Of a stretch of 64,000 nucleotides of DNA, positions 18,930 through 45,045 are shown piece by piece. The first letter of the stretch is position 1. Each line of letters opens with the position of its first letter. The stretch is from Escherichia coli (lineage in GTDB: Bacteria; Pseudomonadota; Gammaproteobacteria; Enterobacterales; Enterobacteriaceae), in assembly GCF_046105845.1 (NCBI RefSeq), contig NZ_CP151004.1, one strand, 5' to 3'. Position numbers and translations under genes: made by a program. The notes beneath the pieces are model-generated. The model saw only the letters and a list, made by a program, of their open reading frames with translations, did not search any database and was not told the origin of the DNA.

Positions 18930-19030
18930 GGCGACAAGAGAGTGAATCCCATGAGCTTACATAAGTAAGTGACTGGGGTGAGCGAACGCAGACGCAGCAC
19001 ATGCAACTTGAAGTATGACGAGTATAAGGC
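18930..19030. repeat. ERIC/IRU intergenic repeat between pgk and fbaA
   Basis: 18963-18984 aagtaagtgactggggtgagcg equals the ERIC2 primer sequence; the preceding gtgaatcccatgagcttacat is the near-complement of ERIC1R. Outer boundaries approximate. Confidence 0.75.
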
Positions 19031-41100: not shown

Positions 41101-43974
41101 ATGACACAGACGTTAAGCCAGCTTGAAAACAGCGGCGCTTTTATTGAACGCCATATCGGACCGGACGCCGCGCAACAGCAAGAAATGCTGAATGCCGTTG
41201 GCGCACAATCGTTAAACGCGCTGACCGGCCAGATTGTGCCGAAAGATATTCAGCTTGCGACCCCGCCGCAGGTTGGCGCACCGGCGACCGAATACGCCGC
41301 GCTGGCGGAACTCAAGGCTATTGCCAGTCGCAATAAACGCTTCACGTCTTACATCGGCATGGGTTACACCGCCGTGCAGCTACCGCCGGTTATTCTGCGT
41401 AACATGCTGGAAAATCCGGGCTGGTATACCGCGTATACTCCGTATCAACCTGAAGTCTCCCAGGGCCGCCTTGAAGCACTGCTCAACTTCCAGCAGGTAA
41501 CGTTGGATTTAACCGGGCTGGATATGGCCTCTGCTTCTCTTCTGGACGAAGCCACCGCTGCCGCCGAAGCAATGGCGATGGCTAAACGCGTCAGCAAACT
41601 GAAAAATGCCAACCGCTTCTTCGTGGCTTCCGATGTGCATCCGCAAACGCTGGATGTGGTCCGTACTCGTGCCGAAACCTTTGGTTTTGAAGTGATTGTC
41701 GATGACGCGCAAAAAGTGCTCGACCATCAGGACGTCTTCGGCGTGCTGTTTCAGCAGGTCGGCACTACCGGTGAAATTCATGACTACACTGCGCTTATCA
41801 GCGAACTGAAATCACGCAAAATTGTGGTCAGCGTCGCCGCCGATATTATGGCGCTGGTGCTGTTAACTGCGCCGGGTAAACAGGGCGCGGATATTGTCTT
41901 TGGTTCGGCGCAACGCTTTGGCGTACCGATGGGCTACGGTGGCCCACATGCGGCATTCTTTGCGGCGAAAGATGAATACAAACGCTCAATGCCGGGCCGT
42001 ATTATCGGTGTATCGAAAGATGCAGCTGGCAATACCGCTCTGCGCATGGCGATGCAGACTCGCGAGCAACATATTCGCCGTGAGAAAGCGAACTCCAACA
42101 TTTGTACTTCCCAGGTACTGCTGGCAAACATCGCCAGCCTGTATGCCGTTTATCACGGCCCGGTTGGCCTGAAACGTATCGCTAACCGCATCCACCGTCT
42201 GACCGATATCCTGGCGGCGGGCCTGCAACAAAAAGGTCTGAAGCTGCGTCATGCGCACTATTTCGACACCTTGTGTGTGGAAGTGGCCGACAAAGCGGGC
42301 GTACTGACGCGTGCCGAAGCGGCTGAAATCAACCTGCGTAGCGATATCCTGAACGCGGTTGGGATCACCCTTGATGAAACCACCACGCGTGAAAACGTGA
42401 TGCAGCTTTTCAGCGTGCTGCTGGGCGATAACCACGGGCTGGAGATCGACACGCTGGATAAAGACGTGGCTCACGACAGCCGCTCTATTCAGCCTGCGAT
42501 GCTGCGCGACGACGAAATCCTCACCCATCCGGTGTTTAATCGCTACCACAGCGAAACCGAAATGATGCGCTATATGCACTCGCTGGAGCGTAAAGATCTG
42601 GCGCTGAATCAGGCGATGATCCCGCTGGGTTCCTGCACCATGAAACTGAACGCCGCCGCCGAGATGATCCCAATCACCTGGCCGGAATTTGCTGAACTGC
42701 ACCCGTTCTGCCCGCCAGAACAGGCCGAAGGTTATCAGCAGATGATTGCGCAGCTGGCTGACTGGCTGGTGAAACTGACCGGTTACGACGCCGTTTGTAT
42801 GCAGCCGAACTCTGGCGCACAGGGCGAATACGCGGGCCTGCTGGCGATTCGTCATTATCATGAAAGCCGCAACGAAGGGCATCGTGATATCTGCCTGATC
42901 CCGGCATCTGCCCACGGCACTAACCCCGCTTCCGCGCATATGGCGGGGATGCAGGTGGTGGTTGTGGCGTGTGATAAAAACGGCAATATCGATTTGACTG
43001 ATCTGCGCGCGAAAGCGGAACAGGCGGGCGATAACCTCTCCTGTATCATGGTGACCTATCCTTCCACCCACGGCGTGTATGAAGAAACGATCCGTGAGGT
43101 GTGTGAAGTCGTGCATCAGTTCGGTGGTCAGGTTTACCTTGATGGCGCGAACATGAACGCTCAGGTTGGCATCACCTCGCCGGGCTTTATTGGTGCGGAC
43201 GTCTCGCACCTTAACCTGCATAAAACTTTCTGCATTCCGCACGGTGGTGGTGGTCCGGGTATGGGACCGATCGGCGTGAAAGCGCATCTGGCACCGTTTG
43301 TACCGGGTCATAGCGTGGTGCAAATCGAAGGCATGTTAACCCGTCAGGGCGCGGTTTCTGCGGCACCGTTCGGTAGCGCATCTATTCTGCCAATCAGCTG
43401 GATGTACATCCGCATGATGGGCGCAGAAGGGCTGAAAAAAGCAAGCCAGGTGGCAATTCTTAACGCCAACTATATTGCCAGCCGCCTGCAGGATGCTTTC
43501 CCGGTGCTGTATACCGGTCGCGACGGTCGCGTGGCGCACGAATGTATTCTTGATATTCGTCCGCTGAAAGAAGAAACCGGCATCAGCGAACTGGATATTG
43601 CCAAGCGTCTGATCGACTACGGTTTCCACGCGCCGACCATGTCATTCCCGGTGGCGGGTACGCTGATGGTTGAACCGACCGAATCCGAAAGCAAAGTGGA
43701 ACTGGATCGCTTTATCGACGCGATGCTGGCTATCCGCGCAGAAATTGACCAGGTGAAAGCCGGTGTCTGGCCGCTGGAAGATAACCCGCTGGTGAACGCG
43801 CCACACATTCAGAGCGAACTGGTCGCCGAGTGGGCGCATCCGTACAGCCGCGAAGTTGCAGTATTCCCGGCAGGCGTGGCAGACAAATACTGGCCAACAG
43901 TGAAACGTCTGGATGATGTTTACGGCGACCGTAACCTGTTCTGCTCCTGCGTACCGATTAGCGAATACCAGTAA
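41101..43974 (+). CDS. gcvP: Glycine dehydrogenase (decarboxylating), glycine cleavage system P protein
   Basis: ORF 41017..43974 trimmed to [22 protein letters not shown] at 41101; 957 aa. Confidence 0.97.
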
Positions 43975-43996
43975 TTTACTGATTCGACTATCTTCT

Positions 43997-44018
43997 AAAG
44001 GCGCTTCGGCGCCTTTTT
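43997..44018 (+). terminator. Intrinsic terminator of gcvP
   Basis: aaaggcgc ttcg gcgccttttt: perfect 8-bp GC stem, tetraloop, T-run. Confidence 0.88.
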
Positions 44019-44053
44019 AGTCAGATGACAAAGTACAAAAGTGCTCAGACAGT

Positions 44054-44156
44054 CCCCTCGCCCCTTTGGGGAGAGGGTTAGGGTGAGGGGAACAGGCCGG
44101 CACTGGCGCGAATATTTACCCTCACCCCGGCCCTCTCCCTGAAAGGGCGAGGGGGA
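44054..44156. repeat. GC-rich imperfect palindromic repeat element (boxC-like; family assignment uncertain)
   Basis: cccctcgcccctttggggagagggttagggtgagggg ... ccctcaccccggccctctccctgaaagggcgaggggg: the two halves are near reverse complements around a ~28-nt centre. Confidence 0.6.
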
Positions 44157-44240
44157 AAAGCGTGCCAACATTGAAGATTGAGCCAGTTTGTTAGCAATCT
44201 AAAAGATACGTCAACGAATTAATTTTTCCAGGAAAAACAA

Positions 44241-44984
44241 TTGGCTATAGCACTTGTGACCGGTGGCAGTCGCGGCATCGGGCGGGCAACTGCATTACTG
44301 TTGGCGCAAGAAGGGTATACGGTGGCGGTTAATTATCAGCAAAACCTCCACGCGGCGCAGGAAGTGGTGAACTTAATCACGCAAGCCGGTGGCAAGGCAT
44401 TCGTGCTCCAGGCGGATATCAGCGACGAAAATCAGGTCGTCGAGATGTTTACCGCAATCGATCTGCACGATGAACCGCTAGCTGCACTGGTCAATAACGC
44501 CGGGATCTTGTTTACCCAGTGCACCGTAGAAAACCTTACCGCAGAGCGAATCAACCGGGTACTTTCCACCAATGTGACGGGACATTTTCTCTGTTGCCGC
44601 GAGGCGGTAAAACGCATGGCGCTGAAAAATGGCGGTAATGGCGGTGCTATCGTCAACGTCTCTTCAGTGGCCTCACGGCTGGGATCTCCGGGGGAATACG
44701 TTGATTATGCGGCATCGAAAGGGGCGATTGATACGTTAACCACAGGGCTGTCGCTGGAAGTCGCTGCGCAAGGAATTCGCGTTAATGGCGTGCGGCCCGG
44801 TTTTATCTATACCGGAATGCACGCCAGCGGTGGCGAACCTGGACGCGTTGATCGCGTTAAGTCGAACATCCCCATGCAGCGCGGTGGGCAGGCGGAAGAG
44901 GTCGCGCAGGCCATCGTCTGGCTGTTAAGTGATAAAGCCTCTTATGTCACGGGAAGTTTTATCGATTTGGCGGGCGGAAAATAA
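44241..44984 (+). CDS. ygfF: Short-chain dehydrogenase/reductase
   Basis: 247-aa ORF with SDR Rossmann motif TGGSRGIGRA and catalytic Y-x3-K. Confidence 0.92.
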   Translation: MAIALVTGGSRGIGRATALLLAQEGYTVAVNYQQNLHAAQEVVNLITQAGGKAFVLQADISDENQVVEMFTAIDLHDEPLAALVNNAGILFTQCTVENLTAERINRVLSTNVTGHFLCCREAVKRMALKNGGNGGAIVNVSSVASRLGSPGEYVDYAASKGAIDTLTTGLSLEVAAQGIRVNGVRPGFIYTGMHASGGEPGRVDRVKSNIPMQRGGQAEEVAQAIVWLLSDKASYVTGSFIDLAGGK

Positions 44985-45045
44985 GATGGGAAAGTTATCT
45001 GACCGGATGCAACACAATTGGCGTTGCATCCGGCACATCAGATAA

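Follow-up and report, generated by a model that had tools for sequence, protein, structure and literature searches.

A convergent BoxC type A and type B doublet between gcvP and ygfF in Escherichia coli

First described in 1992, BoxC still has neither a function nor a propagation mechanism attached to it. Holder et al. 2015 (PMC4666352) equate BoxC (Bergler 1992) with PIT (Hoyne & Maher 2000, 2002) and TMECO, and an independent survey also recovered BoxC as an E. coli stem-loop family (PMC2267715). The K-12 genome holds 23 units, and five of its loci carry inverted doublets that always combine a type A with a type B unit, units 10 and 11 among them (PMC4666352). Neither promoter nor terminator activity was found and RNA polymerase is unaffected (Hoyne & Maher 2002, as summarised in PMC4666352), while DNA polymerase is blocked by the element in vitro but not in vivo (PMC4666352). 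Type A and type B oligonucleotides form a stable intrastrand purine-motif triplex on the G-rich strand, as judged by CD and NMR; when the complementary strand is added only duplex is seen, and in vivo DMS footprinting gave no triplex protection (PMC4666352). The same work found TMECO loci to be more variable than control loci, described deletions that leave a simple hairpin as a 'palindrome effect', and stated that the motif is unassociated with phages (PMC4666352).

Other dispersed repeats share some of these traits. REP/BIME and ERIC (IRU) elements are also GC-rich or palindromic intergenic repeats of E. coli, often found after genes, but have no sequence similarity to BoxC (in comparisons made here with a weak REP query and with an ERIC core that matches at 18963). 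The REP consensus is a palindrome of the GCCGGATG...CATCCGGC type. MITEs resemble BoxC in being small (<200 bp), non-coding and dispersed, with terminal inverted repeats, and the presence/absence polymorphism with sharp junctions described below for fepB-entC adds to the likeness; they differ in that BoxC has no convincing target-site duplication. We know of no parent IS element with ends matching BoxC, nor of a RAYT, another Y1 transposase or any other mobilising enzyme for it. REPINs, that is, REP doublets mobilised by RAYT transposases, are likewise inverted repeats around a spacer that fold into one long hairpin (Bertels & Rainey 2011; PMC3116915, PMC3337134). As with REPINs, the BoxC doublet appears to be copied whole, with singlets alongside, and it is intergenic and vertically persistent. 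In contrast to REPINs, BoxC is by direct reading unrelated in sequence to REP, has a low copy number (~23 units in K-12), and joins halves of two different subtypes, A and B, whose 5' extensions also differ.

In this context, we analyse a palindrome downstream of gcvP in a 64-kb window (the whole stretch of 64,000 nucleotides of E. coli DNA studied here, to which all coordinates refer unless another accession is given). For this window, the main value of the analysis is a correct label, so that a repeat that is catalogued but left unannotated in RefSeq is not flagged as new. The BoxC literature examined takes the ~36-nt unit as the element, whereas here a ~140-bp doublet composite is paralogous at three loci. 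What we add is this composite unit at three K-12 loci, its place at the edge of a ygfF polymorphism, the recurrence of deletions between its 9-mers, and the doublet geometry in Methylomirabilota. Doublets as composites, the ygfF edge and the geometry in a distant phylum make the spread of BoxC a testable question of comparative genomics.

The palindrome downstream of gcvP is a BoxC doublet

The element is intergenic: gcvP ends upstream of it, with its stop at 43974, and ygfF starts downstream, at 44241. The original prediction, made by reading the sequence, placed a large GC-rich palindrome of ~100 bp at 44054-44156, and a repeat search recovered it there. Its arms, 44054-44092 and 44116-44154, are 39 nt each and 82% complementary, with 23 nt between them, and a further outer arm pair lies at 44053-44067 and 44142-44156. 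The strand as read is cagt CCCCTCGCCCCTTTGGGGAGAGGGTTAGGGTGAGGGG aacaggccggcactggcgcgaatattt ACCCTCACCCCGGCCCTCTCCCTGAAAGGGCGAGGGGG aaaag. All of the sub-motifs first listed for the arms are present, with the exception that one of them, ggggcgagggg, had been read one G out of register:

44054-44064: cccctcgcccc, opposite gggcgaggggg at 44146-44156
44070-44077: ggagaggg, opposite ccctctcc at 44130-44137
44081-44090: gggtgagggg, opposite ccctcaccc at 44119-44127

The fold of this sequence is far stronger than its composition would give. As RNA, the palindrome has a predicted folding energy of -76.6 kcal/mol against -46.7 +/- 3.4 kcal/mol for shuffles (z = -8.8), and as DNA one of -37.5 kcal/mol (z = -6.6); in both cases 0 of 200 shuffles were as good. 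When single-stranded, the whole palindrome forms one long hairpin, and either arm by itself reaches only -18 to -24 kcal/mol. A chance palindrome is rejected, as the structure is far beyond chance, and the folding energies proposed as a check on the prediction bear it out. A larger palindrome with outer arms at 44015-44032 and 44187-44204 (72% complementary) was considered and left out of the element, since the centroid fold does not use these arms. A mechanically called ORF of 58 aa on the - strand (43995-44171) covers the whole element; no gene is annotated there in the RefSeq genomes sampled, and the ORF is almost certainly an artefact of a stop-poor, GC-rich palindrome.

The palindrome is real, but it is not the single element first described. 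It consists of two ~36-nt inverted units and a spacer, that is, a convergent, tail-to-tail doublet of BoxC type A (+) and type B (-) separated by 27 nt. The published consensus, CCCTCNCCC-N3-6-GGGNGAGGG-N3-GGGNGAGGG (PMC4666352), is matched exactly twice in the 64-kb window, at 44055-44089 (+) and 44119-44153 (-), where shuffles give 0.00 expected matches. The guess of a boxC-type family, made without database searches, was therefore correct: both arms are exact consensus matches. The features of the locus are as follows:

43997-44020, + strand: intrinsic terminator of gcvP (context), hairpin AAAGGCGC-TTCG-GCGCCTTT followed by T5, 23 nt after the stop codon
44021-45025, + strand: variable segment of the long allele, with the doublet, ygfF (44241-44984) and part of a REP-like palindrome
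44024-44054, + strand: left outer flank, gATGACAAAgt..aaaGtGCtCagaCaGTC, which includes the type A 5' extension and aligns with the fepB-entC and alx-sstT flanks
44055-44090, + strand: BoxC unit of type A 'mm', CCCTCGCCC-CTTTG-GGGAGAGGG-TTA-GGGTGAGGG-G, identical to MG1655 TMECO #11
44091-44117, no strand: spacer between the units, aacaggccggcactggcgcgaatattt, the loop of the long hairpin, invariant in the six long-allele strains aligned
44118-44153, - strand: BoxC unit of type B 'mm', CCCTCGCCC-TTTCA-GGGAGAGGG-CCG-GGGTGAGGG-T, identical to MG1655 TMECO #10
44154-44165, + strand: right outer flank, ggaaaagcgtgc, the reverse complement of the GCACCGTTTTCT-like type B extension, common to the sampled K-12 copies of type B

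One 9-mer (CCCTCNCCC / GGGNGAGGG) occurs three times in each unit and six times in the doublet. In the window as a whole, six of the seven GGGNGAGGG 9-mers lie within the palindrome, where 1.0 would be expected. In the type A unit, block 1 can form a hairpin with block 2, and block 3 nearly copies block 2. The loop is TTA in the left unit and CCG in the right one, which fits the rule that inverted doublets pair A with B. Both 36-mers equal, letter for letter, TMECO #11 and #10 (Table 1, PMC4666352), and were re-extracted from NC_000913.3 (3,045,989-3,046,087); over a region of 111 nt the window is 100% identical to K-12. The control oligonucleotide of the published triplex experiments is a G-to-C mutant of exactly the left-arm sequence at gcvP-ygfF (PMC4666352).

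The doublet is thus an already published element, catalogued in K-12 as TMECO #11 and #10; it is real, well structured and ordinary. Its likeness to BoxC/PIT/TMECO lies in the exact units, the intergenic position, the multiple copies and the inverted A+B arrangement found at five K-12 loci. RefSeq carries no annotation at the gcvP-ygfF doublet or at the other K-12 doublets. An Rfam scan of 43500-44700 (E <= 10) returned eukaryotic miRNA hairpin models only, at no more than 33.5 bits against thresholds of 70-105; we regard these sub-threshold matches as generic hairpin noise and reject an Rfam RNA family.

Two alleles at the gcvP-ygfF locus

The original prediction held that a canonical gcvP terminator lies upstream of the element, which would not be needed for termination. 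The terminator is real (hairpin GGCGC-UUCG-GCGCC and U5), with an RNA fold of -15.7 kcal/mol for 43985-44025. It is conserved in O157:H7 and Nissle, both of which are without the repeat, and is the last sequence common to the long and short alleles of the locus. The second half of the statement fits both this complete upstream terminator and the published lack of terminator activity (PMC4666352). A scan with promoter and terminator consensus patterns flagged nothing, not even the evident gcvP terminator, and is uninformative; the terminator was probably missed because the flanking A/U runs pair, leaving too few T after the stem.

The element is covered in 3,025 of 5,426 complete E. coli genomes, and the others, as sampled from the ranking, match only up to 44018-44020 (megablast). 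In O157:H7, Nissle 1917 and ETEC TW10598, ygfF is absent and bglA comes immediately after gcvP. In this short allele, the place of 44021 to ~45025 is taken by ~110 bp of unrelated sequence with a different REP at its end. That is, ygfF is an accessory gene, and the segment holding the doublet and ygfF (~1 kb) is replaced in about 44% of the 5,426 genomes. A distance of 3-4 nt separates the left breakpoint of the replaced segment from the left end of the composite delimited below, and homology between the alleles resumes near 45026, inside REP-like palindromes. Because the segment is exchanged as a whole, gcvP-ygfF offers no clean empty site that would show a target-site duplication.

Within the long allele, the element is nearly invariant in six sequences (the window and five strains), the exceptions being a G-to-A change at 44060 and the deletion of one G in the run 44151-44155. 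Two long-allele strains carry a 6-nt AGGGTT deletion (44074-44079), which removes one block of unit A. Around the element, the window is 97.5% identical to K-12-like strains over 601 nt, and its best matches reach 99.2-99.5%. The ygfF start at 44241 is TTG in the window and ATG in the five other long-allele strains aligned.

Some minor features of the two alleles may be recorded here. A REP-like palindrome at 45003-45033 (CCGGATGCAAC...GTTGCATCCGG) lies between the convergent stop codons of ygfF and bglA, and the short allele has a different REP type at this site (GCCTGATG...CATCAGGC). Right after the gcvP terminator, the short allele begins with 25 nt (TTTTAGATTGTTAATAAAGTGCGCT) that agree at 21 of 25 positions with the reverse complement of 44181-44204, a score reached by 0 of 300 shuffles. 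In addition, TTTTAG (44015-44020) and CTAAAA (44199-44204) form 6-nt inverted repeats that bracket the composite. The inverted match and the bracketing repeats may have been left by an inversion that took in the entire element.

The composite unit in E. coli and beyond

As had been proposed with the prediction, copies were counted genome-wide. Of 5,426 complete E. coli genomes, 5,408 match the 111-nt query, at a median of 17 places each; nearly all of these places are chromosomal, and one MG1655 assembly has 21. The element is hence both multi-copy and strongly folded, rather than a unique sequence without stable structure. Long matches on E. coli plasmid records were rejected as plasmid carriage: they come from the chromosome (fepB-entC and alx-sstT), although the records are labelled non-mobilizable or 'ecc' plasmids. 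A phage search gave three partial and negligible matches with at most 36% coverage. Two K-12 units, TMECO #3 and #4 (in NC_000913.3 281800-289600), lie within the region annotated as cryptic prophage CP4-6, an observation to be set beside the published statement on phages (PMC4666352).

We extracted 18 K-12 units with their flanks (NC_000913.3) for comparison. All 10 type A copies sampled have a common 5' extension (~GnGCnCrAtCGGTC), and the sampled type B units all have a different one (~GCACCGTTTTCT). The convergent doublets at gcvP-ygfF, fepB-entC and alx-sstT have homologous spacers, which align along their length:

gcvP-ygfF: GAACAGGCCGGCACTGGCGCGAATATTTA
fepB-entC: GAACAGCCAGCACTGGTGCGAACATTAA
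alx-sstT: GAACAGGCCAGCATCGGTGCGAAAAATTA

The three doublets also share ~30 nt of left flank (from GATGACAA) and ~12 nt of right flank, and BLAST matches to the paralogues set the limits of the shared sequence at 44024/25 and 44155/65. The doublet, its spacer and its short flanks (about 44024-44165) are therefore one composite of ~140 bp, with two more copies in K-12, at fepB-entC and alx-sstT. Since both spacers and flanks are homologous at the three loci, the doublet was copied whole and not built by two independent insertions. Of the remaining doublets, that at hrpB-mrcB has another B subtype and a shorter spacer, and that at lldD-trmL is divergent, not convergent. The left flank in the window contains a near-tandem duplication at 44028-44042 (ACAAAGT ACAAAAGT), absent from the fepB-entC and alx-sstT paralogues.

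Single units occur as well. Two nominally single K-12 units, yjdP-phnP and #3, have a decayed head-to-head partner ~30-40 nt away (in front of #3 lies a degenerate type A remnant in inverted orientation), so that some singlets may have arisen by erosion of doublets. Of eight single K-12 copies sampled, five are flanked by convergent genes.

The paralogous loci vary too. At fepB-entC, a block of 186 nt with the doublet at its centre is missing from about half of the genomes; its junctions are sharp and show TAA microhomology only, which fits deletion no less well than insertion. In one allele of alx-sstT, 75 nt between direct CCCTCTCCC repeats are deleted and a simple hairpin is left, and in another the whole segment is replaced. 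At hrpB-mrcB, a 64-nt deletion between GGGAGAGGG repeats likewise leaves a simple hairpin in one allele, and the 'empty' allele retains a diverged flank and hence is not a clean empty site. Deletions between the element's own 9-mers thus recur at gcvP-ygfF and at paralogous loci. The single unit at zntA-tusA is stable, being present in 5,148 of 5,425 genomes.

Outside E. coli, a consensus scan with one genome per species found at least 120 loci, mostly from one Roseateles (Mitsuaria) genome, so that it speaks to breadth and is not a taxonomic census. The betaproteobacterium Roseateles (Mitsuaria) chitosanitabidus carries at least 145 copies, with 27 divergent and 0 convergent doublets among the matches listed; one ORF between its copies was inspected for a RAYT or other transposase between inverted copies, and by eye it looked like an ordinary membrane protein. 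A Methylomirabilota MAG has 13 copies among the matches listed, including three convergent doublets whose units lie 29-31 nt apart; measured in this way, the distance is 29 nt in the E. coli gcvP-ygfF doublet. The copies in this MAG have conserved flanks of their own, and their spacers have no evident similarity to those of E. coli. Candidatus Contendobacter has copies with TTA and with CCG loops, and plasmids of Klebsiella, Sinorhizobium, Azospirillum and others carry short matches to the core motif. Altogether, the 9-mer blocks are conserved in Betaproteobacteria, Methylomirabilota and Gammaproteobacteria.

Explanations for the doublet

The reading that we favour, with a probability of about 0.7, is that the locus carries a BoxC A+B doublet which is a selfish or neutral, REPIN- or MITE-like repeat and promotes local rearrangement. 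Such a dispersed repeat would be propagated as a whole doublet, and at gcvP-ygfF it would have no required role in gcvP termination or in gene regulation. Its effect would be structural (slippage and rearrangement) rather than on the regulation of gcvP or ygfF. As each doublet holds six 9-mers, single strands exposed by replication could misalign or fold into hairpins, a long cruciform arm or, in vitro, a triplex. Either event would promote deletion by slippage between 9-mers, as well as larger rearrangements at the edge of the element, and the ~1-kb ygfF segment, starting so close to the left end of the composite, may be one such edge rearrangement.

Some observations sit less easily with this reading. 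The stable zntA-tusA copy argues against high current mobility or strong instability. Moreover, the association of the element with variable loci is correlative, and repeats may simply accumulate in unconstrained intergenic DNA. Finally, the 9-mer blocks and the doublet spacing found in distant phyla hint at selection for specific recognition or structure, which a purely neutral reading leaves unexplained.

This last point is where a more specific, and rather doubtful, version of the favoured explanation would help. It proposes a non-autonomous mobile element, akin to REPINs, that replicates as the ~140-bp doublet (A unit, spacer and B unit) and not as the 36-nt unit. If this were true, the CCCTCNCCC / GGGNGAGGG blocks shared across phyla and the 29-31-nt spacing would have one explanation, namely that a widespread protein recognises a particular fold of the single strand (a hairpin together with a third strand). 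Singlets would be decay products.

Alternatively, the element could act as RNA. In transcripts that run on beyond the gcvP terminator, or in a ygfF 5' leader, the hairpin might shield mRNA 3' ends from exonucleases, back up the terminator or modulate ygfF translation. Some REP/BIME elements act at the RNA level in this way. The hairpin is indeed extremely stable on either strand, the element lies just after gcvP and 85 nt upstream of the ygfF start, and the share of single K-12 copies sampled between convergent genes (5/8) resembles the 3'-end distribution of REP, although such sites are also those that best tolerate neutral insertions. We nevertheless consider an RNA role improbable. A complete intrinsic terminator already precedes the element, no U-run follows the big hairpin on the + strand, Rfam matches stay within noise, and about 44% of E. 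coli genomes express gcvP without the element. The published assays, which found neither promoter or terminator activity nor an effect on RNA polymerase (PMC4666352), point the same way.

A selected non-B DNA device is a further explanation to which we would give little credit. Following the speculation of Holder et al. (PMC4666352), a triplex, G-quadruplex or cruciform would stall forks or recruit repair and so yield adaptive local variation. A G-quadruplex is possible because each arm is a canonical (G3N2-3)x4 motif, and the G-tracts are visible in the sequence itself at 44068-44090 and, on the - strand, at 44119-44139. The stable triplexes of type A and type B oligonucleotides in CD and NMR and the raised variability of TMECO loci over controls (PMC4666352) favour such a device, as does the conservation of the 9-mer blocks in the three bacterial groups named above. 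On the other hand, these oligonucleotides give duplex only with their complementary strand, and DMS footprinting found no triplex in vivo (PMC4666352). Second-order selection for instability is also hard to sustain, and the variability is equally explained as a by-product of repeats.

The remaining proposal, raised as an alternative in the original prediction, is a protein-binding site in which the 9-mers are operators of a dimeric protein for ygfF regulation or nucleoid organisation; the palindrome of repeated 9-mers, its position upstream of ygfF and the conservation of the motif across phyla would suit it, but it is highly improbable given that ~20 dispersed copies adjoin functionally unrelated genes, that many lie between convergent 3' ends with nothing there to regulate, that single units are not themselves dyad-symmetric operators, and that a literature search gave no report of a binding protein.

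With the preferred reading of a BoxC repeat, it remains to place the element against the common E. coli repeat families. The early remark that it is unlike REP or ERIC holds: the ERIC core is not in 44000-44200, and by direct reading the 9-mers are unrelated to REP. The REP consensus itself had no match in the window at up to 3 mismatches, a weak result in that the query also misses the REP-like palindrome at 45003-45033. The ERIC2 primer sequence, with 3 mismatches allowed, had no match in 44000-44200 and matched only at 18963-18984. The match there is exact (AAGTAAGTGACTGGGGTGAGCG), and this site is probably an ERIC/IRU element unrelated to the doublet.
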